A stretch of DNA of 64,000 nt. Source: Escherichia coli. Lineage in GTDB: Bacteria > Pseudomonadota > Gammaproteobacteria > Enterobacterales > Enterobacteriaceae. The position numbers and the translations under genes are program-made. This document shows positions 30,185 to 58,815 of the stretch, in pieces. The stretch lies in the NCBI RefSeq assembly GCF_051903065.1, contig NZ_CP178439.1, one strand, 5' to 3'. How positions within the stretch are numbered: the first letter of the stretch is position 1; each line of letters begins with the position of its first letter. The notes under the pieces are model-generated. The model ran no database searches and was not told where the DNA came from. It saw only the letters and a program-made list of their open reading frames with translations.

Positions 30185-32774
<2,590 letters not shown>

Positions 32775-33545: not shown

Positions 33546-35099
33546 TTAGTTTTCAACTAACTGAACGACGACCAGCCTGCCGCCTTCCTCCTTTGACAGA
33601 ACAAACTGAGCGTTATTCGTCAGTTCAATTTTTTCCCCAATGGCAATCTGTCGTTTATCCGGTAATGACATAAGCCCATTTATGCCTTCATTTACTAACC
33701 ACCACTGATCGTTATGGAAAACAAAATACCCAACTCGTTTCCTTTGTGCATCGGTTGTGCGCTCATTTGGCGCAATGAGGCGATTCACATGCCACGCATA
33801 GATTGACTGCCCGCTCCACACCATCAACCGGTGGTCGTCAGGACGATAACTGCCTTCCTTTCGGGATGAATATAAATTTAGAACCGGTAATTTACCCTTG
33901 TATGGCGTACCGCAGTAGGGACAAACCGGCTTTGTCTTACCTGAGAAAACGTACCATTTCTGTTCACACGCCTTGTTCTGGCAGGGCTGTATCAGATCGA
34001 CTGTTTTAACCAGGGCACTTTCCCACTCATCGGCGGTCGGGCGTTTATTGGCATCGTGTAAGCCATCAATAAAGGCGCGTTCAAACAAAGGCGTCAAATA
34101 AGGGCCCATGATGGTGTAAGGAATTTTCTCCGGGTCAGCCCAGGGCAGTGAAAAGGAGGATAGCTGACTGACTTTGACTGCATTGCTTTTGTCTGTCGGA
34201 TGTTCAATGAAGAGTGCCTTCTCACCCATAGATAAGGTCTCATCACGTACTTCATCCGACATGTCATGTATTTTTCCGCCACGTAGCGGATGACGGAAGA
34301 ACAGATACATGTAGATAAGCACCGACAGCGCATGACGGTCAGTAGAAATGCTTGGCAATACGCGGTTCGGATCCTCTTTGGAAAGATGGCTGGTTTTCAC
34401 CACTTCCGGAGCGATAAAATCCGGGGTGCCCACGACGTCGGGAGGATACTTTCCAGGGACAACCAGGCCGTCTACGTCAATGATGCAGGCATGTCCCATT
34501 TCTGGATCGATAAGCACGTTTTTATAGCTTAGATCGCTGTGACAGAGACCTGCCGCATGCATCCTTCTGACGGCTCTTGTTAGCAGCAGACAGACCTTGA
34601 GATAGGTAAGCGTATTGCCTCGTTCACGTGGGTCGAGAAATTTATTCTGGTTGCTGGCGCTGGCAAACCATTTGCCTTCCTTTTCACGGCCTTTTATGCC
34701 AAGAAAATCATCGTTTTTAGAGCCGTATTTAAAGAAAAAGTAGCTTTTGTAGGTTGGAACCACGATGCCGATTTTATCCCCATGCTCAACAACGTGGGTC
34801 GGCCAGCAAAACAGGTCCTTCCAGTATTCACCTCCGGACTGGCCAAAAATGTTTTGCCTGTAGCGTCCGGTGATCATATCAATCCGATCCCGGGCCTGCT
34901 CGTTCTGCGGTTTATGATAAAAAGCGACGACGTATGATTTATCAGGCGAGAAGTAAACATCCTTCATCGAGCCCGAACCAATTACCTCGTCAACATACTG
35001 GACTGTTTCGCCGTCCTTTGTTTTGCACGTAACAATATTTGCCATATTGATCACCGAAGAAGCGTATCCCTTACCACAACACCGCAATAGTGCGGTCAT
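33546..35099 (-). CDS. Ser/Thr protein kinase, Ter-linked, with C-terminal zinc-ribbon region
   Basis: Glycine loop GSGSMKDVYF, catalytic loop HSDLSYKNVLI, DFG-like IIDVDGL; C-terminal CPYCG; the true start may be the internal ATG at 35045. Confidence 0.7.
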   Translation of the reverse strand: MTALLRCCGKGYASSVINMANIVTCKTKDGETVQYVDEVIGSGSMKDVYFSPDKSYVVAFYHKPQNEQARDRIDMITGRYRQNIFGQSGGEYWKDLFCWPTHVVEHGDKIGIVVPTYKSYFFFKYGSKNDDFLGIKGREKEGKWFASASNQNKFLDPRERGNTLTYLKVCLLLTRAVRRMHAAGLCHSDLSYKNVLIDPEMGHACIIDVDGLVVPGKYPPDVVGTPDFIAPEVVKTSHLSKEDPNRVLPSISTDRHALSVLIYMYLFFRHPLRGGKIHDMSDEVRDETLSMGEKALFIEHPTDKSNAVKVSQLSSFSLPWADPEKIPYTIMGPYLTPLFERAFIDGLHDANKRPTADEWESALVKTVDLIQPCQNKACEQKWYVFSGKTKPVCPYCGTPYKGKLPVLNLYSSRKEGSYRPDDHRLMVWSGQSIYAWHVNRLIAPNERTTDAQRKRVGYFVFHNDQWWLVNEGINGLMSLPDKRQIAIGEKIELTNNAQFVLSKEEGGRLVVVQLVEN

Positions 35100-36711
35100 C
35101 GTGGTTCCCTGTGGAGAAAAAGTTAAGCCAGTCGCCTAACCTCTCAGGCGCAATACTGGCGTCTGTAAGGACAGGGATGAGCTCATCAAGGAGACGGGTC
35201 CATTTTTCGTCACTGCGAAGCCCGTTATCTGTCTCAAACAGAGGGTCTGATACGCCATCTGTCATGAGGATCAAGTGAGATACATCATTCCATTTACCCA
35301 CGCTGATGCGGCCGCTAAACGAGGGGTCTGCGATAATGCTCTGGTCAAGAAAGCGGGTTTGTCCTGCGTATTCTCCGCTATCGGGATTTCCCAGTATCCT
35401 GACTTTACCGGAAGGGCTGTATGCACCTATCGCACCATCACCAAGCCAGAATGCAGCCGCAAACAGCTCGTTATCAGTTCGTAGCGCTACAGTTGCCAGT
35501 AGGGTTGTTGAATAGGATTTCACAGGTTGTTCTGCACAAATGGCTTCGTTCTGGATACTGTTGACCGCGAGCGTAGCTGCCTGTTTAAAATGATGAAGCA
35601 TGGCGTTTATGGTTGCCTGCTGATCGCTCCCTTCCCACGCCGTGATGTGCTGCTTTAGATGGACGCCTTTCAAACCACTGAGCTGATTGAAAAGGTAATC
35701 GCCAGCCGTTTGGACTGCAATCCGGGAGCCTTCCCGGGAATTTACCGCACTACCGGCCCCGTCTGCGACCAGCATGACAGACCATCCTGTTTCCTGGCAG
35801 TGGTTGATATAGAAGTCGTCATCTCTGAAGCTCCCGGCATGCTCATGAGATCGTCCCCGGCGACTGGCGGCAGCAATACGTATGTCACCCCTGACCAGGC
35901 CAGCAGCGTCCAGATGGGACTTAGGGTAGGAAGCGTCTGCTGGTGGCTCTACCACCTTCCACAGGCTTCTCGGATCGGGATTGACTATAAAAAGCTGTTT
36001 TGTTTCGCATTCGTCGTGCGAAGCGCATGACCAGAGTACTGAAAGCTCTATATCGCCGCTTTCGGTGGGTGTACCTGTCAGCAACTTATGCTCTTTGTCA
36101 AAGGTCAGGCCAATGTTCCTGGGAAAGACAACGTCCCTGACAGTAGCCTGCTGGCCCTCATCCAGAACTATAGCAACCGGCGAAGAGAAACGTTCGCCTG
36201 CGCGGGCGTTGGGAATAACTATTTTAGCTCTCGGGGGAACGGCAGGTGGCACAGCTAATCCGGCCCGCTGCTGGCCTGTCGGTATCTGCCCGGGTTTTAA
36301 TACCAGGGAAGACAGGTTTTCGTCTTCCCTCTGTGCTGGTTTATCAAATTCGTAATAAGGCATCAGCTTCCAGAACGGAGGATGAGGTTCATTTTCTGGC
36401 AGGGGTTGCAGTAATGGTGTATCGGTAGCGTCAATGCCCGGGTTATCAGCATCACTTACGACCGTTTGTTGCTGATCGGAAAGGCTGGATGCTGACGAGG
36501 GGGCGATCTCTGCGTCGTTATAACCTTCGCTAACCCGCGCAGATAAACCCTGTGCAAGGCTCTCAATCCGCTCTTTAAGCCGCATAATCTCTTCAGTAAG
36601 GGAAGGGTCGTGCGATAGAAGAAAAAGCCGCTCACCTTCTACAGGGTGGCCCAGCTCAGACAGCACTAAGCGGATAATCTTCTCTTCAAGTAAAACATTT
36701 TGCGACATCAA
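35071..36711 (-). CDS. PP2C-family Ser/Thr protein phosphatase, Ter-linked
   Basis: PP2C motifs LVADGAGSAV, WLGDGAIG, LMTDGVSD; 546 aa; overlaps neighbours at both ends (operon-like). Confidence 0.65.
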   Translation of the reverse strand: MMSQNVLLEEKIIRLVLSELGHPVEGERLFLLSHDPSLTEEIMRLKERIESLAQGLSARVSEGYNDAEIAPSSASSLSDQQQTVVSDADNPGIDATDTPLLQPLPENEPHPPFWKLMPYYEFDKPAQREDENLSSLVLKPGQIPTGQQRAGLAVPPAVPPRAKIVIPNARAGERFSSPVAIVLDEGQQATVRDVVFPRNIGLTFDKEHKLLTGTPTESGDIELSVLWSCASHDECETKQLFIVNPDPRSLWKVVEPPADASYPKSHLDAAGLVRGDIRIAAASRRGRSHEHAGSFRDDDFYINHCQETGWSVMLVADGAGSAVNSREGSRIAVQTAGDYLFNQLSGLKGVHLKQHITAWEGSDQQATINAMLHHFKQAATLAVNSIQNEAICAEQPVKSYSTTLLATVALRTDNELFAAAFWLGDGAIGAYSPSGKVRILGNPDSGEYAGQTRFLDQSIIADPSFSGRISVGKWNDVSHLILMTDGVSDPLFETDNGLRSDEKWTRLLDELIPVLTDASIAPERLGDWLNFFSTGNHDDRTIAVLW

Positions 36712-37748
36712 CCTCTCCCTCTGTTTACGTCGAAGTTAGTGTTTCCGCCATCATTGCTGAATGACAGACCTGTTTCACACCACGGGCAGATCACGTCATC
36801 CGGGCCGTCAATGCACAGCAATTTTCCGCATGAGCACAGGGCAAACGCACTGGCATTACCGCAGTGAGGGCAACCCGGTACGCCATGCAGTTCGCTGGTG
36901 TTTACCTGCAAACCGGTAGCGGTGGCATCTGACCATGCAAAATAGTCTTCATCGATGGGATAGCATCCGGCAATATTAAAGCTGTTCAGGTTCAGGCTGA
37001 AATCGAGCCCGGAAATCCTTGCTGGTGGCCGTTCATACTTCATCAGATACGGACGACGGGTCTTGCTGCAACGGCCGGTAAGCGTAACGCAGTTTTCGTC
37101 GTACGCTTTTACTGGCTCGTCCTTGGCCAGCCGGACTATGTATTCAGTCTGGCTGAGCTCAGGTTGTTTGTCGTCTCCGACGCTGCGGCTGTGCGCCGTA
37201 ACCGAGGCTGTGATCCATTTGATGAAGCGGGTAAAGTCCCCTTCCTGAGACTCGGTGAACAGCATGACATTCTCTGTCAGTTGCCGCAGGGTATTCAGGT
37301 CCGCTGACGGCCCCAGGCCAACGGCAATGAGATTCACTTTACTCGCGTAGTGATCCTTCCAGCGCTTCACTTCTGCGGTTGTGTCGTCAGTCGGACGTCC
37401 GTCGGTAAGGAGATACACGACGGGTTTCCAGTCGCCTTTAGCCTCATGAGTGGTTTTTCTGACCTGGGTATCAATTTGTACGGTCAGCTCACGCAATGCG
37501 GCCCCAAGGCTCGTACCGCCGCCAACGGGAAGGCGGGGAGGGTAGAACGAGGCAATTTCGTGAAGAGGTACAATCGTACGGGCTACACCGGCAAATGCGA
37601 TTACCGAAACCCAGGCTGTTTCAAGTGCGTGTGGATCCTTTCTTAAATCTCCGATGATCATTTGCAGACCATCAGTCATTTTTTTCAGGTTTTCACCAAT
37701 CATGGACTCTGAACAGTCCAGGACAAAAAACACGGGAAGGCGTCTCAT
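36708..37748 (-). CDS. terY: TerY-like vWA protein with C-terminal zinc ribbon
   Basis: MRRLPVFFVLDCSESM MIDAS start, LLTDGRPTDD; C-terminal CPHCG..CSCG..CPWC; start set at ATG 37748 with GAGGA upstream (track ORF extends to 37952). Confidence 0.7.
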   Translation of the reverse strand: MRRLPVFFVLDCSESMIGENLKKMTDGLQMIIGDLRKDPHALETAWVSVIAFAGVARTIVPLHEIASFYPPRLPVGGGTSLGAALRELTVQIDTQVRKTTHEAKGDWKPVVYLLTDGRPTDDTTAEVKRWKDHYASKVNLIAVGLGPSADLNTLRQLTENVMLFTESQEGDFTRFIKWITASVTAHSRSVGDDKQPELSQTEYIVRLAKDEPVKAYDENCVTLTGRCSKTRRPYLMKYERPPARISGLDFSLNLNSFNIAGCYPIDEDYFAWSDATATGLQVNTSELHGVPGCPHCGNASAFALCSCGKLLCIDGPDDVICPWCETGLSFSNDGGNTNFDVNRGRG

Positions 37749-37833
37749 AATTTTCCTCGTACGGCTGGTACGGCCAGCAGAAAACGTTGCTGTACAGAAA
37801 GGTGCTGCCCGGAAAGCAGCACCTTTCTGTCTG

Positions 37834-38475
37834 TCAGAGCACCAGCTGGATTTCTGGTGGAGGAGGGGGAAGGGTATCAGTTCCGTTATTGATCCCCGCG
37901 CTTGTGCTGCCGGAAGACACGCTGGCCGATACCCATTTAAAGAAACCTGCAAACGCGGTTGAATCTAGCGTCTCCAGAGACACAACCTTATCGGTGAGCT
38001 GTTTTAAGTGCTCATGGCCTGCTTTAGGACCAACGGCGCAGGCAATGATGGATCCGAATCCCCGGCCGCGAATCGCTTTTACCGCTTCACCGTACGCCAG
38101 GGCATCAGAAGGGGTTCCATCAGTCATCAGGAATACCAGAGGACGCCAGTCTCCTTTTGTATCACCATCTGAGCGACGTACATCCCGTTCAACACACTGC
38201 ATCAGACATTCAAGGGCAGCACCGGTGAACGTCCCGCCTGCGCTTGGCACAACGATGTCAGAAAACTGGAAGTCTTCCAGCGGCGTGAGAGGAATGAACT
38301 CACGCGCCTCATTGTCATAGGTGATAATGGAGATATGAACGCTTTCGAGGGCGTAGGGATCCTGGCGAAGAGCGCTAAGCATCGCCTGAATTCCAACGTT
38401 AACGGAATGGATGGACTCACCGCGCATCGAGCCGGATGTGTCGATAACAAGGTAAACAGGCAGGCGGCGCATCAC
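37834..38475 (-). CDS. terY: TerY-like vWA protein
   Basis: MMRRLPVYLVIDTSGSM, FLMTDGTPSD; 213 aa; start overlaps the terX stop. Confidence 0.75.
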   Translation of the reverse strand: MMRRLPVYLVIDTSGSMRGESIHSVNVGIQAMLSALRQDPYALESVHISIITYDNEAREFIPLTPLEDFQFSDIVVPSAGGTFTGAALECLMQCVERDVRRSDGDTKGDWRPLVFLMTDGTPSDALAYGEAVKAIRGRGFGSIIACAVGPKAGHEHLKQLTDKVVSLETLDSTAFAGFFKWVSASVSSGSTSAGINNGTDTLPPPPPEIQLVL

Positions 38476-39113
38476 ATGTAATTCCTCAGGTGCGAGACAA
38501 ACGAATCTGATTCTGAAGGCTCACCAATTGCCCTGAGTTTCCAGCCTGTAGCCTCGCGTATCAGCTCGGCAAAAACCATGGAGCGCTGGCTGGCGAAGGC
38601 GGGTCCGCCAGAAAGATCGAATCGTGCCATTTCAATATTACGGGCATCTACTGCCCGGATGAAGGCATTCTGAACTTTACCAAAGTGCTGCTGGAGCTTT
38701 TCACCATTGTAGATCTGAACGATGAACACAATTTTCTCGTACTGAGCGTCAAGGGAATTCAGGCGCACAATAATTTGCTCATCGTCACCATCACCGGCTC
38801 CGGTTCGGTTATCGCCCGTCAGCCAGATATTTCCTGACTTATGGCGAAGGCTGTTGAAAAAGATGATATCGCCATTCACAAGCGTTGGTTTACCATTTTC
38901 CACATTGCCGAGATCGGTCACCTTTCCGGCTGAATTACACAGGAAAGCGATCACATCAAGGTCGTATTCTTCTTCTTTTTTACCAAAGATCCCGCCGAGG
39001 AAACCTTTCTTTTCCTCATTAATATCCCAACCCAGGCCGATAGTAACGGACGAGAGATCGTATTCATTTTTTTTCAGGCTTACGCCCTGGCCTTTGCTCA
39101 GACTGACAGACAT
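38472..39113 (-). CDS. terX: TerD-family protein TerX
   Basis: TerD signature GDNRTGAGDGDDE; 213 aa; flanked by terY paralogs. Confidence 0.75.
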   Translation of the reverse strand: MSVSLSKGQGVSLKKNEYDLSSVTIGLGWDINEEKKGFLGGIFGKKEEEYDLDVIAFLCNSAGKVTDLGNVENGKPTLVNGDIIFFNSLRHKSGNIWLTGDNRTGAGDGDDEQIIVRLNSLDAQYEKIVFIVQIYNGEKLQQHFGKVQNAFIRAVDARNIEMARFDLSGGPAFASQRSMVFAELIREATGWKLRAIGEPSESDSFVSHLRNYM

Positions 39114-39135
39114 GACATCCCCTTAATTAATAAAA

Positions 39136-39774
39136 TTATAAGACCACGTTTACTTCTGGCGGCGGCGGTGGCAGGTCTTCAAGACCGATCACTTCTTTTT
39201 TGCTGGACTCCACTTTCTGACTGCCTACCGAAATGCTCGCACTGACCCATTTAAAGAAAGCTTTAATCGTCGAACTGTCAGCTGTATCGAGCTGAACCAC
39301 GATTTCAGTGATTTCTTTGAGGACGCTGGTATCGGCATCATGCCCGGCTGCACATGCCACAACAACGCCGGTTCTGGCCGCTTTAAAGTCATTCAGGCCT
39401 TTACGCCAGTCATCATTCGGACTTCCATCCGTCATCAGGAATACAAGGGGACGCCAGTCACCTTTAGTGTCAGCCGTCGTTTTCTGTACTTCTTTGGCAA
39501 TGGAGCTGGCCGTGAGGGAAAGCGCTTCGCCAAGAGAGGTGGTGCCGCTGGCTGTTAGTGCTGGCATCTGGAAACTCAGGAGGTCTGTCAGGGGGACTGC
39601 CTGTCGGGCTGAAGAATCAAAGGTGATCACTGACACGTAAGCCGTTTCGAGTGCATACGGATCCTGTTTCAGCGTGGTAAGCAGCGTCTGAACGCCATTC
39701 TTAACCGCTTCGATAGGCTCTCCGTGCATAGAGCCGGACGTGTCGAGTAGCAGATATACGGGTAAGCGTCTCAA
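39136..39774 (-). CDS. terY: TerY-like vWA protein, probable TTG start
   Basis: LRRLPVYLLLDTSGSM and FLMTDGSPND; homologs begin MRRLPVY, so the TTG at 39774 (AAGAAGGAA 6 nt upstream) is preferred over the track ATG at 39855. Confidence 0.65.
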   Translation of the reverse strand: MRRLPVYLLLDTSGSMHGEPIEAVKNGVQTLLTTLKQDPYALETAYVSVITFDSSARQAVPLTDLLSFQMPALTASGTTSLGEALSLTASSIAKEVQKTTADTKGDWRPLVFLMTDGSPNDDWRKGLNDFKAARTGVVVACAAGHDADTSVLKEITEIVVQLDTADSSTIKAFFKWVSASISVGSQKVESSKKEVIGLEDLPPPPPEVNVVL

Positions 39775-40200
39775 ATGTAATTCCTTCTTAAGAGATCGGA
39801 AGAGGAGAGTAGTTTCAGGAAGAGGCCAGAGTTTGTAGATTTGATAAAACGGCACGACATCTGTCGGGTGGAGATTAAATACTCAGAAGCGGCATTAAAG
39901 AAATAAGTTAACCACCATTGAATTACCGACATGTGAATGGCCTCTTATCAGAGAAAAAAATTCAGACCGTACTGGAATATAAATTTCTGAAAAAAACTCC
40001 GGCAAAAATAAACTTTCTTATGTATGAAAATCATCATACATCACAGATCTGCATGAATGGAGTGTAAATCGCCCAAAGATTGATGTGTAGCACAAGAGGA
40101 TGTCAAGACACCAGGTTTTGTAGGCAGAAAGGCGCTGCTGACATTGCGGGAGGAGAATAGATCAAAACTCCGTCACGCAGATACAGAGGTGAAATATGAC

Positions 40201-40222
40201 AAAACCGGGGTTTTCACCCCGG
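40201..40222 (-). terminator. Hairpin plus T-tract between terW and terY (attenuator/terminator on the minus strand)
   Basis: Minus-strand reading gives CCGGGG-tgaaaa-CCCCGG followed by TTTT. Confidence 0.45.
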
Positions 40223-40236
40223 TCTGAGATTTAGCG

Positions 40237-40704
40237 TCAGGACTTTTTAGCGCTGTATTCTTTTATCAGTTCATCAACGGAGTGCAGAGCCAGCTTCTCT
40301 ACCGCTTCACTTCGGGTCGAGCCACTCAGCGCAGCCAGACGGTCAATTTTTCTTAAAATCCGCATGCGTAGCGATAATGACACGGCTGTTTTTTTATCCT
40401 TATCGAGTACGACCTTCCCTGTGGACTCACCGGTTTTCAGTTCAGCATTCTGTGCGAGCGCTTCATTCATCCGGCGAAGGGTCTTTTTATCCAGCTGGCC
40501 CGGATTAACGAGATGGTAGGAATGACCTGCCTTGCTGTATTTGATCTCCGCAGAATATGACTCGCGTAGCTCTTTGAGTGCCCGGGTTAATGTCGGCTCT
40601 GAGCATTCCAGACTGGTTATAATGTCGGCAGCGGAAACGGGCTTGCCGGTGCCCAGTAAGTTGGCAAGCTTAAAAATCCGGGCCTGTCTGGTATTTAATT
40701 GCAT
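40237..40704 (-). CDS. terW: TerW, winged-helix DNA-binding protein
   Basis: 155-aa ORF with N-terminal helix-turn-helix-like segment (AADIITSLECSEPTLTRALKELR); position upstream of terY/terX. Confidence 0.65.
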   Translation of the reverse strand: MQLNTRQARIFKLANLLGTGKPVSAADIITSLECSEPTLTRALKELRESYSAEIKYSKAGHSYHLVNPGQLDKKTLRRMNEALAQNAELKTGESTGKVVLDKDKKTAVSLSLRMRILRKIDRLAALSGSTRSEAVEKLALHSVDELIKEYSAKKS

Positions 40705-40721
40705 CGTAAGATTTAGCCTGC

Positions 40722-41930: not shown

Positions 41931-41940
41931 TATGATTTCC

Positions 41941-43976: not shown

Positions 43977-43977
43977 T

Positions 43978-44751: not shown

Positions 44752-45892
44752 AGGTAACAATCTCCACGACGGGCGCAACCTCAGCCAGGGCTTTAAGAAG
44801 CTGCGTGTCAATACTTTCTGCGGGTGTCTCAGTACACACAAGAATACGGTCAAACTGCTGGTGGGCGACGTTATAGACAAAATTGGGGATGCCCAGCCCG
44901 TAGTTATCCGTAAAGGAAATGGCGGACTCAATGGCATAACCAACGGCGATAGGGGAGCGGGTGGTCGAACCATAAAGTGCCTGTGCTCCGGCAGCTTCGA
45001 GCCGTTCAGCAAGCAGGAACGGCTCCCAGACGAATTCCCCGGTCCCGAGAACCAGAATACGTTCCCCCTTGCGGACGGAGACCTCATGGCCGAGATCGGC
45101 CGCAGGTGCGAGCATCCCCAGTCGACCCCAGGACTGTTTTCCCAGGATGTCCCATTCTCCGCGTGAAGTTACGTTGACTTTCGGCATGTCCGGGACAGGT
45201 GCATCAGGTAATGGGGTCCATCCCCACTGACCGCTTACAAGCGAAACCGAAGTGACGGGCAAGGATGTGCGCTCCGACAGGGCGTTGCTACTCCAGTCGG
45301 TAAGCGTAACGGCGATAACCTGTTCAATATGTTGAAGCTTGCCGGTATTACGCAGGGCAGAAAGCAGGTTAATAAAGGTATTACCGGTGGTTGCCTCGTC
45401 ATCAATCAAAACCAGCGTTCGTGCGTTGGTAACACGACGTCTTTTCTCTTCATCATCTGGCAGATAGATCAGATGATCGGTGGCGTGGCTGTGTTCTTCC
45501 TTGAACTCGCAAAGTAACGTGCCATCAACCGGGTGACGGGTAGAGGTCAGATAGACAGATTCACGATGCTGGTGGCGCACTTCATCAAACACACCGGCCC
45601 CTAGCCCAACGGCGGTTTCAGCCATACCGATAAAAAGTACGGGCCCTGTCAGCGTTGCGGGGAACTGGCTGGCAAGCTGTCTGTAGGCCTGCCGCATGAC
45701 TGAGGGTGGCACGGGAATGTGCCTGCCGAGTACTTTGCTGACAAACAGAAAGGCGCGTTTCGGGTTACGTCTTTCAGCGATATCAAACAGGTCATCGAGC
45801 GAAACATCACCCTGGTCGCGGGTTACCTGTATCGTACCGCATGAGAGGGTACGGCGATAAATCATATCTTCGAGGGTATCAGACATAAACAC
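44744..45892 (-). CDS. Phosphoribosyltransferase-domain protein, Ter-linked biosynthesis module
   Basis: PRPP-binding motif LVLIDDEATTGNTF; 382 aa. Confidence 0.65.
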   Translation of the reverse strand: MFMSDTLEDMIYRRTLSCGTIQVTRDQGDVSLDDLFDIAERRNPKRAFLFVSKVLGRHIPVPPSVMRQAYRQLASQFPATLTGPVLFIGMAETAVGLGAGVFDEVRHQHRESVYLTSTRHPVDGTLLCEFKEEHSHATDHLIYLPDDEEKRRRVTNARTLVLIDDEATTGNTFINLLSALRNTGKLQHIEQVIAVTLTDWSSNALSERTSLPVTSVSLVSGQWGWTPLPDAPVPDMPKVNVTSRGEWDILGKQSWGRLGMLAPAADLGHEVSVRKGERILVLGTGEFVWEPFLLAERLEAAGAQALYGSTTRSPIAVGYAIESAISFTDNYGLGIPNFVYNVAHQQFDRILVCTETPAESIDTQLLKALAEVAPVVEIVTYE

Positions 45893-45895
45893 GCC

Positions 45896-46954
45896 TTAAT
45901 TCAGATGGTTAGAGAGTGATTCCGGGTAAACGATGACATCTGTGATGGATCTCACTGCAACCGGAGAAAAGGTATTTCTGGCGCTCTGGATCACCGCATC
46001 TTCAGACATCAGACCGAGCTTAAAGGCAGCAAACAACCCGGGAAGGTTCACCCCGCTGTGAAGGGTATAACCCACCCCGCCTGACGGACGCATGTTGGTT
46101 TCAAGCAGCACCGGGTTGCCATTCACATCGTTTCGCGTCTGAACATTCACCAGCCCGTCGGCCTTCATAACCCGGGCGCAGTCACAAGCCAGTTCCCAGG
46201 CGCTTCCTTCGTTTACCAGATACTGGATAGCCCCTTCCTTACGGCGTCCCACGGCTGCGAGTATTTCGCCCTTATCCGCGAGGATATCGACGGAAAATTC
46301 CGGGCCTGGCAGGTACGGCATCAAAACAAGGGGTTTAAACGACTCAGAAGCCGATGCTGCTGCAATATACTGTTGCGGACTGACCAGACGATGTTCGGGA
46401 TGATTAAAGACGGCCATGGGCGAAGCACTGTCATCAAAGCGCCAGAATCCCATGCCATAGATACCCGTCACCGGCTTCACGCATACCGGGCTGTCCGAGA
46501 ACGGCGGGGCCGCGAGGTGCGTCTTTAATTCTGCCAGCGTATTCACCCGCCAGGACGGTACGACCGGGAGCCCGTTTTGCTCCATAAACTGAGCAAAAGT
46601 AACTTTTTCGTCAGCCAGAGTTAACCAGTCGACGCCTGTTGCACCGGTAGTAAGGGTGGCTCCGGTCGATTCAATGGCTGAACGGTGTTCTTCAAACCAC
46701 TGGCTGTTACGGCCAGTATGAATATGGTGGATGCCGTAGGTCTGAATGGTTTCCTGAATAAACTGAAGACGTTTTTGAGGATCTTCAGGTTCAGTCAAAG
46801 AATAATCGGCAACGGAAAGAATTTCATGTCTTTCGTTACGGTGGGAGGCAAATACGGTAATAGCAAAATTATTTTTTTGTGCAAATGATTTTACCCCCTG
46901 AATAATATCTCGCTGGGAGGACAAACCTTCCATAAACCAAATTTTCTTGTTCAT
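45896..46954 (-). CDS. ATP-grasp enzyme, Ter-linked biosynthesis module
   Basis: 352-aa ORF, first gene of the minus-strand biosynthesis operon divergent from terZ; Gly-rich VCVKPVTGIYGMGF segment; call based mainly on position. Confidence 0.5.
   Translation of the reverse strand: MNKKIWFMEGLSSQRDIIQGVKSFAQKNNFAITVFASHRNERHEILSVADYSLTEPEDPQKRLQFIQETIQTYGIHHIHTGRNSQWFEEHRSAIESTGATLTTGATGVDWLTLADEKVTFAQFMEQNGLPVVPSWRVNTLAELKTHLAAPPFSDSPVCVKPVTGIYGMGFWRFDDSASPMAVFNHPEHRLVSPQQYIAAASASESFKPLVLMPYLPGPEFSVDILADKGEILAAVGRRKEGAIQYLVNEGSAWELACDCARVMKADGLVNVQTRNDVNGNPVLLETNMRPSGGVGYTLHSGVNLPGLFAAFKLGLMSEDAVIQSARNTFSPVAVRSITDVIVYPESLSNHLN
46596..46606. repeat. AAAGTWACTTT palindromic motif copy 9
   Basis: AAAGTAACTTT inside the minus-strand ATP-grasp gene (E-K-V-T-F on the coding strand). 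Confidence 0.6.
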
Positions 46955-46985
46955 TTTTTTTAATTATCCGGAACGCCATGCAAAT

Positions 46986-47036
46986 TTATGATTGAGAAGT
47001 GAGTCTATGAGTGTCTACGCTACATGTCAATCATAA
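46986..47036. promoter_or_regulatory. Inverted repeats in the divergent ter promoter region
   Basis: TTATGATTGA (46986-46995) and TCAATCATAA (47027-47036), 31-bp spacer, overlapping a second dyad ATCATAaTATGAT; lies between the biosynthesis operon and terZ. Confidence 0.4.
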
Positions 47037-47277
47037 TATGATTAATAACTTCAGTGGTTATGGAGTGCGTCAGTGTTTTTTTTAGTGCCTTATAACGTAT
47101 TGATATTTAAATTAAAAATAGAAAAATGAACACCATGAAAAGGATTTATTTTTGTGTTTTTGAAGAAAACTACCAAAATTTCCCTTGTCAGAGAACTTCA
47201 TCATGATATGATTTTCTTCGTCAGTTACTAAATATACCTTTGATTGTCTCGGTCATTACCATTTTAAGGAATAAAAC

Positions 47278-47859
47278 ATGGTTTCATTAGTTAAGAACCA
47301 GACGGTATCACTCAGCAAAGAATCATCTGCATTAAGCCAGCTTCATTTCGGTCTCGGTTGGGATCCGGTTAAGAAAAAAGGTCTTCTTGGAGGATTGTTT
47401 GGAGGCAACGACTCAATCGATCTCGATGCTGGCTGCGTATTAATGGACAGCACCGGTAAAACAATTGACACCATCTGGTTCCGCAAACTGGAATCCACCT
47501 GCGGCGCTGTTGTGCACAGTGGCGATAACCTGACCGGTGAGGGTGACGGTGACGATGAGGTGATTAAGGTCAACCTCTCCCGACTGCCTGCAAACGTTGA
47601 ATACCTGGCGTTTACGGTAAACAGCTTCCGTGGTCAGTCGTTCAATGACGTCGAAAACGCGTTCTGCCGCGTTGTCGATCAAACCGGCAAAGAGCTGGCT
47701 CGCTACAAGCTGACTGAGCAGGGCTCACATACCGGGATCGTTATTTCTTCGCTGCGCCGTAATAACGGCAACTGGGACTTTACCGCCCTTGGCCATGCCT
47801 GTCGCGGCCGCACAATTGACGATATGCACTCCGATATCGTTTCAGCGGTTATTCGCTAA
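47278..47859 (+). CDS. terZ: Tellurite resistance protein TerZ (TerD family)
   Basis: [13 protein letters not shown] signature; 193 aa; first gene of the terZABCDEF order. Confidence 0.85.
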   Translation: MVSLVKNQTVSLSKESSALSQLHFGLGWDPVKKKGLLGGLFGGNDSIDLDAGCVLMDSTGKTIDTIWFRKLESTCGAVVHSGDNLTGEGDGDDEVIKVNLSRLPANVEYLAFTVNSFRGQSFNDVENAFCRVVDQTGKELARYKLTEQGSHTGIVISSLRRNNGNWDFTALGHACRGRTIDDMHSDIVSAVIR

Positions 47860-49016: not shown

Positions 49017-49038
49017 CACAGCAACAAAGGAAACAGGT

Positions 49039-49494
49039 ATGAGCTTTTTCGACAAGGTAAAAGGTGCCATTAACTCTGGCCGGGACGAACTGACCCGCCA
49101 GGTTGGTCGTTTCAAAAACAAAAAATTTATGCACGGCACCGTTGCTGTATGTGCCCGTATTGCCGTATCGAGTGACGGCGTGAGTTCGGAAGAAAAGCAG
49201 AAAATGATGGGCTTTCTTCGCTCTTCAGAAGAGCTGAAGGTCTTCGATACCAATGAGGTGATCGAGTTCTTCAATAAACTGGTTTCAAGCTTCGATTTCG
49301 ATGTTGAAATCGGCAAGGGCGAAACCATGAAATACATCCTGGCGCTGAAAGATCAGCCTGAGGCCGCTCAGCTGGCCTTACGTGTTGGTATTGCCGTTGC
49401 GAAAAGTGACGGTAACTTCGATCAGGACGAGAAACTGGCCTCCCGCGAGATCGCTATCGCGTTGGGCTTCGACCCGGCTGAATTTGGCCTCTGA
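49039..49494 (+). CDS. terB: Tellurite resistance protein TerB
   Basis: MSFFDKVKGAINSGRDE N-terminus; 151 aa; start set at ATG 49039 (the track's earlier start overlaps terA). Confidence 0.85.
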   Translation: MSFFDKVKGAINSGRDELTRQVGRFKNKKFMHGTVAVCARIAVSSDGVSSEEKQKMMGFLRSSEELKVFDTNEVIEFFNKLVSSFDFDVEIGKGETMKYILALKDQPEAAQLALRVGIAVAKSDGNFDQDEKLASREIAIALGFDPAEFGL

Positions 49495-49516
49495 TCCACA
49501 TCCCTAAGGGTAAAAT

Positions 49517-50557
49517 ATGGTTTCCACACACATCGGCTTCCCGACTGAAACGGTCATTGTTTTCATTGCGCTTTCAGTCGGTGCCATCTTTATTGACCTG
49601 TTTATGCACCGTGATGACAAGCCCATTTCCCTGAAGAGTGCGGCGCTCTGGTCCGTATTCTGGGTTGTGGTTGCGATGGCATTTGCCGGTTTCCTCTACA
49701 TCCACCACGGTGCTGAGGTTGCCAGCCTGTTTGTAACGGGTTATGCGCTGGAGAAAGTGCTGTCGGTCGACAACCTGTTTGTCATGATGGCCATCTTCTC
49801 CTGGTTCGCCGTTCCTGATCGTTACCGCCACCGTGTTCTCTACTGGGGGATCATTGGTGCCATCGTCTTCAGGGGCATCTTTGTCGCCATCGGTACGAGC
49901 CTGCTGAGTCTGGGGCCGTATGTTGAAGTTGTCTTCGCTATCATCGTCGCCTGGACGGCGGTCATGATGCTTAAAAGCGGTGATGACGATGATGAAATTG
50001 AGGATTATTCCCAGCATCTGGCTTACCGCATGGTTAAACGCTTCTTCCCTATCTGGCCGAAGCTCAGAGGTCATGCTTTCCTGCTTAACCAGAAGGAAGT
50101 GGATGCCGAACTGGCGAAACCAGAAAACAGCGATGTCACCATTGGCCGTGGTAAAAAGGCGGCGCTGTATGCGACCCCTCTGTTCCTGTGTGTGGCCGTG
50201 GTTGAACTCTCGGATGTTATGTTTGCGTTTGACTCGGTACCGGCAATCATTGCCGTCAGTCGTGAACCGCTTATCGTCTATAGTGCCATGATGTTTGCTA
50301 TCCTGGGCCTGCGTACTCTGTACTTTGTCCTTGAAGCACTGAAACAGTACCTGGTTCATCTGGAGAAGGCCGTTATCGTGCTGCTGTTCTTCATCGCGGC
50401 AAAACTGGGCCTGAATGCGACCGATCACATTTGGCATCATGGTTACAGCATCGCGGCGACAACCAGCCTGTATGTTGTACTGGGTGTTTTGGCGCTGGGC
50501 ATTCTCGCAAGCGTCATGTTCCCGGGCAAACCTGAATCTGAGGAAAAGGGGAGCTGA
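49517..50557 (+). CDS. terC: Tellurite resistance integral membrane protein TerC
   Basis: 346-aa polytopic membrane protein with many hydrophobic segments, in the canonical position. Confidence 0.85.
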   Translation: MVSTHIGFPTETVIVFIALSVGAIFIDLFMHRDDKPISLKSAALWSVFWVVVAMAFAGFLYIHHGAEVASLFVTGYALEKVLSVDNLFVMMAIFSWFAVPDRYRHRVLYWGIIGAIVFRGIFVAIGTSLLSLGPYVEVVFAIIVAWTAVMMLKSGDDDDEIEDYSQHLAYRMVKRFFPIWPKLRGHAFLLNQKEVDAELAKPENSDVTIGRGKKAALYATPLFLCVAVVELSDVMFAFDSVPAIIAVSREPLIVYSAMMFAILGLRTLYFVLEALKQYLVHLEKAVIVLLFFIAAKLGLNATDHIWHHGYSIAATTSLYVVLGVLALGILASVMFPGKPESEEKGS

Positions 50558-50605
50558 TCCCCTGAAGTGTTAACCTGAACAATTACTAATCGAAGAGGTT
50601 ATTTT

Positions 50606-51184
50606 ATGAGTGTTTCTCTTTCCAAAGGCGGGAACGTCTCCCTGAGTAAAGCAGCTCCGTCAATGAAAAACGTCCTGGTGGGCCTTGGCTGGGATGCGCG
50701 TTCAACAGACGGTCAGGACTTTGACCTGGATGCTTCAGCATTCCTGCTGGCCGCAAATGGCAAAGTGCGCGGCGATTCAGATTTCATCTTCTATAACAAC
50801 CTGACGTCATCTGACGGTTCCGTAACCCATACCGGTGATAACCGTACCGGTGAAGGTGATGGTGATGATGAATCGCTGAAAATTAAACTGGACGCCGTCC
50901 CGTCTGATGTTGACAAGATCATCTTCGTTGTCACTATCCATGATGCTCAGGCTCGTCGCCAGAGCTTTGGTCAGGTATCCGGTGCGTTTATTCGCCTGGT
51001 CAATGACGATAACCAGACTGAAGTCGCTCGCTACGATCTGACCGAAGATGCGTCCACTGAGACTGCCATGCTGTTCGGCGAGCTGTATCGCCACAATGGT
51101 GAGTGGAAATTCCGCGCAGTGGGCCAGGGTTATGCTGGTGGTCTGGCATCTGTATGTGCTCAGTACGGCATTAACGCGTCCTGA
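50606..51184 (+). CDS. terD: Tellurite resistance protein TerD
   Basis: [13 protein letters not shown] signature; 192 aa. Confidence 0.9.
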
Positions 51185-51188
51185 TCGA

Positions 51189-51199
51189 AAAGTAACTTT
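51189..51199. repeat. AAAGTWACTTT palindromic motif copy 10
   Basis: GAAAAGTAACTTTTC (15-bp palindrome) in the terD-terE intergenic region. Confidence 0.6.
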
Positions 51200-51251
51200 T
51201 CACCCGGGGCTGTTAATGCAGCCCTCATTCAACTGTTTGCAGGAGCTAAAA

Positions 51252-51827
51252 ATGGCAGTTTCTCTCGTAAAAGGCGGCAACGTATCTCTGACCAAAGAAG
51301 CACCAACCATGAATATCGCTATGGTTGGCCTCGGCTGGGATGCCCGTGTAACTGACGGTCAGGCTTTTGACCTGGACGCTTCCGTGTTCGCAGTAGGCGA
51401 AGACGGTAAAGTGCTGTCAGATGCGCATTTCATTTTCTTCAATAACAAAACCAGCCCTGATGGCGCGGTAGAGCACCAGGGCGACAACCGTACCGGTGAA
51501 GGCGACGGTGACGATGAGCAGGTCAAAATCGATCTGACCAAAGTCTCAGCAGATATCAAAAAACTGGTGTTTGCCGTTACCATCTATGATGCAGAAGCGC
51601 GTAAACAAAACTTCGGCATGGTGAGCAACAGCTTCATGCGCGTTTACAACAACGACAACGGCACGGAAATTGCCCGTTTCGATCTGTCTGAAGATGCCTC
51701 AACCGAAACCGCTATGGTCTTCGGTGAACTGTATCGTCATGGCGCTGAGTGGAAGTTTAAAGCTGTCGGTCAGGGCTTTGCCGGTGGCCTGGCGGCTCTT
51801 GCCTCCCAGCACGGCGTTAACATCTAA
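51252..51827 (+). CDS. terE: Tellurite resistance protein TerE
   Basis: [13 protein letters not shown] signature; start at ATG 51252 with AGGAGC upstream (the track ORF begins upstream in the intergenic region); 191 aa. Confidence 0.9.
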
Positions 51828-51844
51828 AACAACGCTGAATCATA

Positions 51845-51869
51845 CCCCGGCAATGCCGGGGTTTTTTTT
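51845..51869 (+). terminator. Rho-independent terminator after terE
   Basis: CCCCGG-caatg-CCGGGG followed by T8. Confidence 0.75.
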
Positions 51870-52255
51870 GGTTGCGATCCGCTTTCAGGAGGGAGTAGTA
51901 GAAAGGGGACTGGAAATTTCAGAAAGCAGGTCATGTTAATTCAGACCTGAGCCTTTTAAAGGCAGGAAACGGATTTATCTCTGGTTGCTGGTTAAAGCCG
52001 GTATTCCGTGCCTTTTATCAACAGAATGCCCCTCTGATATATGTTACTTTTGCGGTTTATGAAGGAACGGGATCTGGAACATAAGATACCCGGTCAATCA
52101 AAATTCCAGTTCAACAGGTATAGAAACTTCAGCGTGATGAAATATGGTGTCACACCATATATACGCCTCACCAGAAATCCAGCGTCCTGAACTAAGCCTG
52201 GGGAACATATATAAGCGCTGCGCTTTAAAAATAATCAAAAATCAGGAGAGTTAAT

Positions 52256-53497
52256 GTGAATCTACAATCCGGACAAAACATACCGCTTCAGCAATCTGCG
52301 ATCAGGCTGAATCTTCAGTACCCTGCCAAATCCGGCTTTAAAGGCGAACCCGATACCTGCCTCTTCCTGCTTAATGCTCAGGGAAAGGTAACCGGCGATT
52401 CTGACTTTATCTTTTATAATAATCTGTCTTCTCCTGAAGGGGCAGTAAAGCTCGTTACCGGTTCTCAGCAGTCCAGCATTGAGATAGCACTGGATCGTGT
52501 TCCGGCGAACGTCAGTAAGATTGCGATCACCGTTGTCATTGATGGTGAAGATACTATCAGTGGGCTCAGTTTATTGAGCATTCAGGCTCCTGGTATCGCT
52601 GATTTTCAGGCTGAGACTCAGGGCCGCAGTGAGAAAGCAATCATCCTGGGTGAAGTATATCGGCACAATGGCGCCTGGAAGCTTCGTGCGCTCGGGCAGG
52701 GTTTCAACGGTGGTCTTGAGCCTCTGGCCATTAGCTTTGGCGTTGATGTCGCACAGCCAGCTCCGCAGCCAGCAAAGCCTGCTCGTATCAGTCTGGAAAA
52801 GAAACTTGAAACCAGATCTCCGCGCCTCGTAAGCCTCGCTAAAAAAGCCTCGGTCAGTCTCACTAAAAATAAACTGGACACCCTTGAGGCAGCGGTTGCA
52901 TTTGTACTTGACGCATCCGGCTCAATGAGTGGCCAGTTCAGTAAGGGCAACGTTCAGTCTGTGCTGGACCGCATCGCCGTTCTTGCCGCCCAGTTCGACG
53001 ACGACGGTGAAATGGATGTCTGGGGATTTGGAGAGAAGCACAAGAAGTATCCAAACGTCACACTGGACAACCTGGACACATATATTCAGTCCATTCGCGG
53101 GTCTGGAAAGCGTTCAGCCTGGGAGAACCTGCCGGGACTTGGTGGGACAAACAATGAGCCCCCTGTGATGGAAGAAATTGTCGACTACTTTAAGGACTCG
53201 AAAATCCCGGTATATGTTGTATTTATTACCGATGGCGGGATCAGCAAGACCCGGGCGATTAAAGATGCAATCCGGCGTTCTGCCAACTACCCCATCTTCT
53301 GGAAGTTTGTCGGCCTGGGTGGTTCAAGCTACGGTATCCTCAAAAATCTGGATGACTTTACTGACCGCCGGGTTGATAACACCCACTTCTTTGCCATGGA
53401 TGATTTCGGTTCGATCAGCGATGAAAAGTTATATGATAATTTACTGGAAGAATTCAGACCGTGGATCGATGAAACAAAAAGGTTAGGCATCCTGTAA
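52256..53497 (+). CDS. terF: TerF (TerD-like N-terminal domain plus C-terminal vWA-like domain)
   Basis: GTG start; N-terminal TerD-like region ([10 protein letters not shown]); C-terminal [11 protein letters not shown] and FITDGG vWA motifs; 413 aa. Confidence 0.75.
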
Positions 53498-54805: not shown

Positions 54806-56775
<1,970 letters not shown>

Positions 56776-58811: not shown

Positions 58812-58815
58812 CGAT

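Follow-up and report, generated by a model that had tools for sequence, protein, structure and literature searches.

The Ter-linked biosynthesis module and TerY-PP2C-kinase triad are said to have been described by Anantharaman, Iyer and Aravind in 2012, reportedly also the source of the Pfam families from ATPgrasp_Ter to TerY_C. The ter locus confers resistance to tellurite, some phages and pore-forming colicins, and its gene set appears in the literature as terWY1XY2Y3 / terZABCDEF (PMC11003894) or as terY-CYXYW-ZABCDEF. The segment terZ-F suffices for tellurite resistance, with a predicted biosynthetic operon on the opposite strand (PMC8115787); according to the Whelan 1995 insertions as summarised in PMC12054061, the phenotypes seen with tellurite, phage and colicin depend on terZ, terC and terD, and terC has a role in Zn and Mn tolerance and in phage resistance (PMC12054061). 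The role of TerW as a regulator is credited to Valkovicova 2011, as cited in PMC7843439 and PMC12054061, and the region it protects has a 25-bp palindrome (PMC7843439). A TerY-P triad is defined as a VWA protein, a PP2C phosphatase and a kinase whose C-terminus bears a zinc ribbon (PMC11090510).

The window analyzed here is a 64,000-nt stretch of Escherichia coli DNA (NZ_CP178439.1), in which 20 genes lie between positions 33546 (the kinase stop) and 53497 (the terF stop; Table 1). This part is the well-known ter gene cluster of IncHI2 plasmids; it is real, correctly read and already known, not new. Many IncHI2 plasmids have a ter locus that matches all 19,952 bp at 100% identity. Coverage reaches 80% or more in 1229 plasmids of PLSDB and in 328 complete genomes of E. 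coli; among 5426 complete E. coli genomes, ter DNA is found in 1026. The RefSeq annotation agrees with the gene calls, and the gene order, which the initial annotation took to be canonical, recurs unchanged in hundreds of plasmids. The locus is a horizontally acquired stress-resistance island whose G+C exceeds that of the plasmid backbone (0.49-0.55 over most of the ter locus vs 0.36-0.46 where the window carries transfer genes). As a whole it is best explained, with a probability of about 0.9, as a canonical IncHI2 (R478-type) ter locus with four transcription units and the mechanism proposed below. In the flanks, IS100 lies inside the neighboring coiA-like gene and IS21 lies 1.2 kb past terF.

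Table 1. Genes, candidate regulatory elements and predicted units of the ter locus, in window coordinates
Feature	Position	Strand	Basis or remark
Ser/Thr kinase, Hanks-type, 499 aa	33546..35045	-	Pkinase E 9.3e-10
PP2C phosphatase, 545 aa	35071..36708	-	PP2C_2 E 1.8e-46, residues 284-529
terY3 / terY-C, VWA + C-terminal Cys-rich TerY_C metal-binding domain	36708..37748	-	PF00092, PF13519, PF15616 recorded for identical protein
terY2, VWA, MIDAS motif DTSGS	37834..38472	-	PF00092/PF13519
terX, TerD-domain protein	38472..39113	-	PF02342
terY1, VWA, TTG start	39136..39774	-	AAGGAA 7 nt before start; same start in RefSeq
Candidate sigma-70 promoter of terY1-X-Y2-Y3-PP2C-kinase operon, TTGCCG-18-TATATT	39976..40005	-	consensus scan, weak, 9/12 matches
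Palindrome TGTATGA-N6-TCATACA, directly upstream of candidate terY1 promoter	around 40021-40040		palindrome scan
Terminator-like hairpin (intrinsic) right after terW stop, 10-bp GC-rich stem + T-rich tail	40202..40225	-	MFE -17.9 kcal/mol, z -3.8, 0/200 shuffles as good
terW, small DNA-binding regulator, N-terminal winged-HTH-like region	40237..40704	-	AMRFinder terW, 100% identity
DUF4236 protein, 402 aa	40722..41930	-	PF14020
HpcH/CitE-like C-C bond lyase	41941..42897	-	PF15617 C-C_Bond_Lyase; weak NCBIfam matches RipC, CitE
StiP (PRTase-like) + PELOTA_1 protein	42897..43976	-	PF11202, PF15608
HAD-IIB phosphatase	43978..44751	-	PDB 6D3V/6CJ0 E 2.7e-43 full length; HAD-IIB NCBIfam matches
Phosphoribosyltransferase, PRTase_2 + TRSP	44744..45886	-	PF15609, PF12500
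ATP-grasp ligase, ATPgrasp_Ter	45896..46954	-	PF15632; NCBIfam carbamoyl-phosphate-synthase-like E 1e-12
Candidate promoter of biosynthesis-DUF4236-terW operon, TTGACA-17-TAGACT	47002..47030	-	consensus scan, 10/12 matches
Candidate TerW operator 1, palindrome ATCATAATATGAT	47030..47042	.	core of about 25-bp imperfect palindrome abutting leftward promoter -35
Candidate terZABCDE promoter, TTGTCA-16-TG-TATGAT	47185..47212	+	scans
Candidate TerW operator 2, palindrome ATCATGATATGAT	47200-47212		covers -10 of candidate terZABCDE promoter
terZ, TerD domain	47278..47859	+	PF02342; AMRFinder terZ 99.5% identity
terA, TerD-domain protein, 385 aa	47859..49016	+	PF02342
terB	49039..49494	+	PF05099
terC, TerC/Alx-family integral membrane metal-homeostasis protein	49517..50557	+	TIGR03718 E 1.1e-107; PF03741
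terD	50606..51184	+	PF02342
terE	51252..51827	+	PF02342
Intrinsic terminator after terE, 8-bp GC-rich stem then eight T	51844..51862	+	MFE -19.9 kcal/mol, z -4.1, 0/200 shuffles as good
terF, TerD + VWA domains, GTG start	52256..53497	+	MIDAS motif DASGS in translation
Unit ATP-grasp / PRTase / HAD / StiP-PELOTA / C-C lyase / DUF4236 / terW	promoter near 47030-47002, terminator 40225-40202	-	predicted
Unit terZABCDE	promoter 47185-47212, terminator 51844-51862	+	predicted

Profile, structure or PDB comparisons bear out the labels given in the initial annotation to the signaling genes (PP2C, Ser/Thr kinase, VWA/TerY and metal-binding TerY_C), to the biosynthesis genes (ATP-grasp, PRTase, HAD, PRTase-like StiP, HpcH-like lyase) and to DUF4236 and TerD/TerB/TerC; the TTG start that it had proposed for terY1 likewise holds. 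The Pfam accessions in Table 1 are those recorded for identical proteins. The kinase domain is followed by a C-terminal zinc ribbon (C355, C360, C375, C378) and a further all-beta domain (residues 385-499). The PP2C protein opens with N-terminal helices; a disordered linker leads to a beta-sandwich of Ig-like type (160-243), and the PP2C domain proper occupies residues 266-545, with invariant Asp-rich motifs (DDD296-298, ADGAG 315-319, TDGVSD 483-488, HDD 536-538); the best Foldseek PDB matches of its structure model (pLDDT 76.5) are PP2C phosphatases, TAP38/PPH1 at the top (E 2.5e-9) and also tPphA, PPM1A and PstP, and a homologue (P0116) carries PF05345 He_PIG. The VWA domains of the three TerY proteins share 38-47% pairwise identity (TerY2 has 47% to TerY1 and 38% to TerY3), and TerY3 combines the DxSxS MIDAS, present as DCSES, with a Cys cluster. 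All three terY paralogs, including the one with the zinc ribbon, are present as had been noted, but they are not new, as terY1, terY2 and terY3 / terY-C are names already in use (PMC11003894, PMC12054061) and TerY_C is Pfam PF15616. MIDAS motifs are intact in all four VWA proteins, and six proteins of the locus have TerD domains; identities are 66% for TerD and TerE, 39% for TerX and TerD, and 44% for TerA and the TerF N-terminus. TerC scores 360 bits against TIGR03718, for which the cut-off is 246. The PRTase_2 protein has a classical PRPP loop, VLIDDEATTGNT, and the StiP-PELOTA_1 protein, which has no PDB relative found by sequence, a degenerate PRPP-loop-like VDGWTGKG. Pfam support for the HAD label is marginal, and the label is confirmed by the full-length match to PDB 6D3V, with the DLDDT and GDSLSD motifs aligned to 6D3V/6CJ0, and by HAD-IIB NCBIfam models. 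PDB, NCBIfam and PADLOC searches returned no relative of the DUF4236 protein. The DNA-binding domain of TerW is suggested by weak profile matches, to a PADLOC WYL-regulator N-terminus (E 4e-5) and to ArsR/MafR-type HTH.

We read the genes as four predicted transcription units, namely terZABCDE, terF, ATP-grasp to DUF4236-terW, and terY1-terX-terY2-terY3(TerY_C)-PP2C-kinase; their boundaries, promoters and terminators were all predicted from sequence, spacing and folding, and the promoter scans returned sites no more numerous than in shuffled sequence. terF, 428 nt after terE, is a unit apart from terZABCDE, with the predicted terminator between them. In the 64 kb there are just two exact ATCAT-N3-ATGAT palindromes, both at the divergent promoters and both kept in O157:H7, and they are likely to be TerW operators, a reading that agrees with the TerW footprint and palindrome of PMC7843439. 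In Pectobacterium a third putative TerW site lies ahead of terY1 (PMC7843439); here, since the same scan found no exact motif upstream of terY1, TerW control of that operon is unsupported.

In the mechanism that we propose, the core effector is TerC, as shown in the literature: this metal-ion membrane protein of the TerC/Alx family works together with TerB and the TerD-family proteins. TerW serves as regulator of the locus, a role partly shown and partly deduced, and may repress both divergent promoters through the two palindromes. The five enzymes may make a small phosphorylated compound from PRPP, either a sugar or nucleoside-like, that would be dephosphorylated by the HAD-IIB phosphatase. 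The three MIDAS VWA proteins, PP2C and the Hanks-type kinase may form a reversible Ser/Thr phosphorylation switch tuning the TerC/TerD complex, which would be an accessory part of the locus, because STEC ter islands that lack it stay tellurite-resistant.

The initial annotation had placed terW in one minus-strand operon running to the kinase; the genes and their order stand, but terW probably belongs elsewhere. An operon terW-terY1-terX-terY2-terY3-PP2C-kinase, with the biosynthesis genes and DUF4236 as a separate neighboring operon, is improbable, even though all 13 minus-strand genes are co-directional, older papers speak of 'terXYW' or 'terWY1XY2Y3' as a group (PMC11003894, PMC8115787), and terminator read-through is always possible. 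Because terW starts 17 nt past DUF4236 and is followed by the GC-rich hairpin with its T tract and a 462-nt gap before the terY1 start, terW probably ends the biosynthesis/DUF4236 unit. Chromosomal STEC copies (about 700, e.g. O157:H7) point the same way: they cover window positions 40173-52561 alone, terW to a truncated terF, so that terW and the biosynthesis genes are retained without anything past 40173, just beyond the terW hairpin. The PhoP responses of terW and 'the terY operon' also differ (PMC7843439).

As to function, the initial description of the locus as known but poorly understood fits PMC8115787, PMC12054061 and PMC11090510. A tentative case can be made for a primarily metal-homeostatic locus, in which TerC would export or load Mn/Zn, the TerD-domain and VWA-MIDAS proteins would be cation sensors or buffers, and the effects on phage, colicin and tellurite would follow indirectly from changes in the envelope. 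The TerC/Alx membership far above the curated cut-off, the intact MIDAS motifs and TerD domains, the induction by Zn and the Zn/Mn phenotypes reported for terC (PMC12054061) and the P-type cation ATPase that adjoins a related cluster are all consistent with it; however, it leaves the tight linkage of the five-enzyme PRTase/ATP-grasp/HAD/lyase module unexplained, and no yybP-ykoY or other riboswitch was found ahead of terC, unlike many TerC/Alx genes. Slightly weaker is the case for a primarily anti-phage/anti-colicin island, in which terY-PP2C-kinase would be a TerY-P-type infection sensor triggering a TerC/TerD membrane complex, with tellurite resistance a laboratory side-effect. The phage-inhibition and colicin phenotypes of R478 map to terZ, terC, terD and terA (Whelan 1995 as summarised in PMC12054061), plaques are larger on a Klebsiella terC mutant (PMC12054061), TerY-P-like triads provide defence on their own (Gao 2020, as cited in PMC11090510), the triad is modular, occurring alone (L010) or beside a Pif1 helicase, and the kinase weakly matches the defence-associated kinases mad6 and PD-T4-6. 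Yet in published work the phage phenotypes are tied to terZACD and not to the triad, the VWA and PP2C proteins matched none of the PADLOC models with E allowed up to 10, and the kinase matches cover the generic catalytic core alone. The strongest known inducer, moreover, is Zn(II), terC influences how well Zn and Mn are tolerated (PMC12054061), and TerC belongs to a metal-homeostasis family. The canonical IncHI2 ter locus with the mechanism set out above remains the preferred reading.

Among known systems, TerY-P (Gao et al. 2020; PADLOC) shares the VWA, PP2C phosphatase and Ser/Thr kinase logic, but the window kinase has a further beta domain after its zinc ribbon, and the PADLOC models miss the window VWA and PP2C proteins. 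In P. aeruginosa, a DUF4236 gene likewise adjoins ter genes, and the 'trehalose 6-phosphate phosphatase' (PDB 6CJ0, 6D3V, 6D3W) is a full-length homologue of the window HAD protein (36.5% identity by tblastn); a 99.6%-identical phosphatase gene lies between PRTase and StiP of a Ter module there, the position it has in the window. The crystal structures are reportedly those of Cross et al. 2018. Trehalose 6-phosphate is the assayed substrate of that enzyme (PMC6838324), not necessarily the physiological one. The module of this other genus has an extra HAD-IB gene and is co-directional with terZ..E, which supports a functional link between the biosynthesis genes and terZ..E, whereas the two are divergent in the window. 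STEC islands (O157:H7 type) have 97% identity over a stretch that begins shortly beyond terW and takes in the biosynthesis genes and terZABCDE, with both promoter palindromes the same, but lack terY1, terX, terY2, terY3, PP2C and kinase; their terF is truncated and their terW flanked by IS66 copies. The match to the Ter-linked modules of 2012 is confirmed, as ATPgrasp_Ter, PRTase_2, TRSP, StiP, PELOTA_1, C-C_Bond_Lyase and TerY_C are all here in the expected order; from the triad of that work the window does not differ in kind, although its VWA component is triplicated, the TerD-domain gene terX is inserted, and its PP2C has the extra N-terminal helical region and Ig-like domain. With the IncHI2 ter locus (R478 / pKL53-L type; terZABCDEF + terWY1XY2Y3), whose matching records carry the IncHI2A replicon and trh transfer genes, the window shares sequence, gene order and annotation throughout the locus, and only the flanks vary.

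The ter (tellurite-resistance) locus consists of 20 genes whose reading frames are all intact; by ORF listing and translation, the minus strand carries 13 genes, all co-directional, and the plus strand seven, the two sets being separated by a divergent intergenic region of 323 nt. The limits 33546-53497 assigned to it by the initial annotation are exact, being the stop of the kinase gene and the stop of terF, respectively. The gene order is that of the IncHI2/R478 type, with terZABCDEF divergent from the genes for ATP-grasp through terW and from terY1-terX-terY2-terY3-PP2C-kinase. When the 19,952-bp locus was compared with PLSDB by megablast, matches were found in 2482 plasmids, 1229 of them with at least 80% of the stretch, and all 15 PLSDB records among the matches listed (hosts Salmonella, E. 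coli and Enterobacter) are full length and 100% identical. The plasmid record examined, which types as IncHI2A, MOBH and MPF_F, has the same gene set and order and is identical base for base to window 27546-54582; trh transfer genes, typical for IncHI plasmids, occupy the left part of the window. Among complete E. coli genomes ter DNA is present in 1026 of 5426, of which 328 hold 80% or more of the 20-kb locus, and in the assembly index the TerY3 protein occurs in 22,107 blocks and TerC in 53,203; few accessory loci of the Enterobacteriaceae have been sequenced as often as ter. The cluster recognized initially is real, rightly delimited and essentially rightly interpreted, and it is an exact copy of the long-known ter locus, already known and with nothing new in kind. 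Features and domain assignments are collected in the table.

Features of the ter locus and its surroundings (window positions; Pfam families are those precomputed for identical proteins)
Feature	Strand	Position	Pfam family or description
Minus-strand ter genes	minus	33546-46954	13 genes
ATP-grasp protein	minus		ATPgrasp_Ter
PRTase	minus		PRTase_2 + TRSP
HAD (257 aa)	minus		no precomputed family
StiP protein	minus		StiP + PELOTA_1
Lyase	minus		C-C_Bond_Lyase
DUF4236 protein	minus		DUF4236
TerW	minus		no precomputed family
TerY1	minus		VWA (PF00092)
TerX	minus		TerD
TerY2	minus		VWA (PF00092)
TerY3	minus		VWA + TerY_C (PF00092)
Phosphatase	minus		PP2C_2
Kinase	minus		Pkinase
Region of kinase all-beta domain	minus	33546-34700	residues 385-499
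Plus-strand ter genes	plus	47278-53497	7 genes; series TerD, TerD, TerB, TerC, TerD, TerD
Leftward promoter-like site		47030-47002	TTGACA-17-TAGACT
Rightward promoter-like site		47185-47212	TTGTCA-16-TG-TATGAT
Palindrome at leftward promoter		47030-47042	ATCAT-N3-ATGAT
Palindrome at terZ promoter		47200-47212	ATCAT-N3-ATGAT
Weak promoter-like site past terW		40005-39976	
Palindrome near terY1		~40021-40040	TGTATGA-N6-TCATACA
terE-terF terminator		51844-51862	z -4.1
Segment aligned in STEC copies		40173 to ~52561	97% identical
Second VWA-containing cluster		11477-17760	
Tus-like gene		26240-27202	'DNA replication terminus site-binding protein'
Tyrosine recombinase		28419-29594	
Hha/YmoA regulator		29765-29977	nucleoid-associated
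IS100		30821-32774	1954 bp, istA/istB
IS21		54707-56834	istA 390 aa, istB 266 aa
HipB-like HTH, HipA-family toxin, HNH genes		~58518-60141	carried over by offset from L001

The G+C content is 0.49-0.55 over 34-52 kb, which covers most of the ter locus, versus 0.36-0.46 over the transfer genes at 1-30 kb, a contrast consistent with ter as a foreign insert in an IncHI2 backbone. To the left of the island lie genes for a Tus-like protein, a tyrosine recombinase and a Hha/YmoA regulator. Next to the kinase gene a coiA-like gene (CoiA_N) is split by IS100, which is flanked by a 5-bp target duplication; in other copies, such as the related ter-carrying locus L002, this gene is intact (360 aa). An IS21 element lies 1.2 kb past terF, an insertion relative to plasmid NZ_CP068042.1 that is also seen beyond terF in other IncHI2 plasmids, so that the ter locus in the window copy is bracketed by two IS21-family elements. 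Downstream of IS21 are an HTH (HipB-like) and HipA-family toxin pair and then HNH endonuclease genes, located by offset from the related ter-carrying locus L001. The plasmid backbone also holds a co-directional group of genes whose annotated products are an AAA ATPase, a DUF3150 protein, a VWA protein of 670 aa and a protein with a toprim domain; this second VWA-containing cluster is unrelated to ter by position.

In the minus-strand array from ATP-grasp to terW the genes are spaced by -8 to +17 nt (-8 to +10 nt for the five biosynthesis enzymes), and a gap of 462 nt follows 3' of terW. The terW stop is followed at once by a GC-rich hairpin of 10 bp and its T tract (MFE -17.9 kcal/mol, z -3.8), a fold that not one of 200 shuffled sequences equals; a weak promoter-like site lies downstream of it. 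The approximately 700 chromosomal copies in the ter islands of Shiga-toxigenic E. coli (STEC) align only from just past the terW terminator into terF, and so these islands are without terY1, terX, terY2, terY3, PP2C and kinase. Because spacing, hairpin, promoter-like site and STEC break coincide, terW is most likely the last gene of the biosynthesis/DUF4236 unit, and the genes from terY1 to the kinase most likely form an operon of their own that is dispensable. The initial annotation had instead placed terW at the head of the terY genes, an arrangement against which the 462-nt gap, the terminator-like hairpin and the STEC boundary all speak. On the other strand, 428 nt with a strong terminator lie between terE and terF. 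The window copy can serve as a clean reference for annotation, since it shows four transcription units, likely operators for TerW and a natural boundary between modules just past terW.

Two good promoter-like sites face outward in the divergent region, and two exact ATCAT-N3-ATGAT palindromes, the sole exact copies in the 64-kb window, lie upon them: the first directly adjoins the -35 element of the leftward promoter, and the second overlies the -10 element of the terZ promoter. In O157:H7 the two palindromes are conserved. TerW controls ter transcription (Valkovicova 2011, as cited in PMC7843439 and PMC12054061), and the pair are likely candidate TerW operators, a confirmation rather than a discovery. 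Before terY1 a search for a third ATCAT-N3-ATGAT site, also with one mismatch allowed, found none; a palindrome of another sequence, unlike these sites, lies there upstream of the candidate terY1 promoter. An Rfam scan of the whole window returned no riboswitch or other RNA family, including yybP-ykoY before terC.

Domain assignments were examined gene by gene. The core is confirmed as the TerD-domain proteins TerZ, TerA, TerD, TerE, TerX and TerF together with TerB and TerC (by PF02342, PF05099 and PF03741 on identical proteins and by the paralogy table), TerC scoring 360 bits against the TerC/Alx model TIGR03718 (cut-off 246). Translations of the three TerY proteins show MIDAS motifs of the DxSxS type (DTSGS in TerY1 and TerY2, DCSES in TerY3), and their VWA domains share 38-47% pairwise identity. 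The TTG start proposed for terY1 is correct, lying 7 nt after AAGGAA. The three terY paralogs that had been called notable are indeed present, but they are not a new feature, since they already bear names (terY1, terY2, terY3 in PMC11003894; terY-C, Y, Y in PMC12054061) and TerY_C is a Pfam family. The PP2C label is borne out both by the PP2C_2 profile (E 1.8e-46, residues 284-529) and by structure: a model built with 42 homologues has the PP2C fold, with TAP38/PPH1 as top Foldseek match in the PDB (E 2.5e-9) and tPphA, PPM1A and PstP among the further best matches. Its Asp-rich catalytic motifs do not vary between homologues. In the model the catalytic domain comes last, after a helical segment at the N-terminus, a linker that is disordered and an Ig-like beta-sandwich; the He_PIG family is assigned to one homologue. 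The Ser/Thr kinase has a C-terminal zinc ribbon with four nearly invariant Cys residues, a region whose profile matches COX5B/eS31 zinc ribbons (E 0.0016), followed by a confidently modelled all-beta domain; for this last domain, which may be of FHA or OB fold, Pfam gave no match and a whole-chain search no assignment. A PDB sequence search returned nothing useful for PRTase_2/TRSP, StiP, DUF4236, TerW or ATP-grasp, and a literature search on the experimental role of StiP returned nothing relevant.

Pfam support was weak for a single label, that of the HAD protein (marginal matches at E 0.009-0.03, Trehalose_PPase at E 0.009). This label is settled by full-length homology to PDB 6D3V/6CJ0 (E 2.7e-43), in which the DLDDT and GDSLSD motifs align, and by HAD-IIB NCBIfam matches (TIGR01486, E 3.6e-9; TIGR01484 below its cut-off, 24.1 vs 41.8 bits). 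PDB 6CJ0, 6D3V and 6D3W, each homologous to the HAD protein over its full length, bear the deposited name 'trehalose phosphatase' and come from P. aeruginosa, and a gene 99.6% identical to that of the crystallised enzyme lies on P. aeruginosa plasmid CP109686.1 (13992-14750 of the Pseudomonas locus L006) in the order ATP-grasp, PRTase, 'trehalose phosphatase', StiP, HpcH lyase, HAD-IB, TerD, TerB, TerC, TerD, TerD, with a DUF4236 gene and a VWA gene nearby. Because this gene lies inside a Ter module, the crystallised enzyme is a Ter-module component; moreover, the enzyme genes there are co-directional with terZ..E, which strengthens the functional link between biosynthesis module and ter core. 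The Pseudomonas enzyme was assayed in vitro on trehalose 6-phosphate (Cross et al. 2018, as cited in PMC6838324). Its gene context, in which two PRTase-type enzymes stand beside an ATP-grasp ligase and a C-C lyase, suggests that the true substrate is another sugar- or ribosyl-phosphate, and the name 'trehalose phosphatase' may describe a surrogate activity. In the five open-access or bioRxiv papers that bring up trehalose, phosphatase, tellurite resistance and aeruginosa, a set without Cross et al. 2018, no link between trehalose phosphatase and the Ter module was apparent from titles and abstracts. HAD is the only biosynthesis-module enzyme with a close homologue for which both a crystal structure and in-vitro activity exist, and the link could help to name the metabolite of the module; together with the corrected operon map it constitutes the residual value of the locus.

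The ter genes abound on IncHI2 resistance plasmids of clinical importance, on virulence plasmids of Klebsiella and in STEC, and their physiological role is still debated. Tellurite, phage and colicin phenotypes are known for R478 and Klebsiella ter (PMC12054061, PMC8115787), and terZ-F suffices for tellurite resistance (PMC8115787). A locus that serves chiefly as phage/colicin defence would agree with the loss of all three phenotypes upon insertion in terZ, terC or terD and the lowered phage inhibition upon insertion in terA (Whelan 1995, as cited in PMC12054061). That it is at heart a metal-homeostasis device would agree with induction of the Klebsiella ter operon by Zn(II), and Klebsiella terC itself speaks to both, contributing to Zn and Mn tolerance as well as to phage resistance (PMC12054061).

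In the most likely mode of action, the membrane protein TerC, TerB and the cation-binding TerD-domain proteins would form the effector complex, the biosynthesis enzymes would make a PRPP-derived small molecule, and the VWA-MIDAS proteins, PP2C and kinase would act as a reversible phosphorylation switch, accessory because STEC islands are without terY1 to kinase. A more tentative reading, to which a probability of about 0.2 is given, is that terY1-terX-terY2-terY3-PP2C-kinase is a separable, plug-in phospho-signalling module of the TerY-P defence type. It would detect attack by phage or on the envelope and gate the TerC/TerD membrane complex, with the molecule made by the biosynthesis module as messenger or effector. 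If this signalling scheme is true, the crystallised 'trehalose phosphatase' would offer structural access to that metabolite for the first time.

Comparison with known systems places each module. The Ter-linked module of Anantharaman 2012 is a co-directional array beside ter of ATPgrasp_Ter, PRTase_2+TRSP, HAD, StiP+PELOTA_1 and C-C_Bond_Lyase, as found here, where by translation the PRPP loop of the PRTase is intact and HAD has the nucleophile motif DxDxT; that the module makes a nucleoside-like metabolite is a prediction. The validated TerY-P defence system of Gao 2020 was considered as the identity of the triad and rejected: PADLOC profiles gave no match for the VWA or PP2C proteins (E up to 10), nor for TerD, DUF4236 or TerF proteins, and the kinase matched only other kinase families (mad6, PD-T4-6, MkoA). 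The triad is therefore kept apart from that system. The kinase of that system is fused to a C-terminal OB fold; in the window kinase a zinc ribbon is followed by the all-beta domain, for which an OB fold is among those suspected. The zinc-ribbon definition of the TerY-P kinase in PMC11090510 does fit. Homologues of the kinase are also encoded in minimal VWA-PP2C-kinase triads that have no ter genes, and in larger arrays that further include TerD, several VWA genes and TerY_C along with a Pif1 helicase and a second kinase. One such array, in the metagenomic relative L012 (1-11452), contains two TerD and three VWA genes, AIM24, a Pif1-type helicase, VWA+TerY_C, PP2C and two kinase-family genes, with a P-type cation ATPase downstream, and represents the terY operon in expanded form. 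The TerY-P triad as defined by a VWA protein with MIDAS, a PP2C with catalytic Asp and a kinase with a C-terminal zinc ribbon is present in full, and at every testable point the locus agrees with an IncHI2 ter locus carrying the Ter-linked biosynthesis module and a TerY-P triad.
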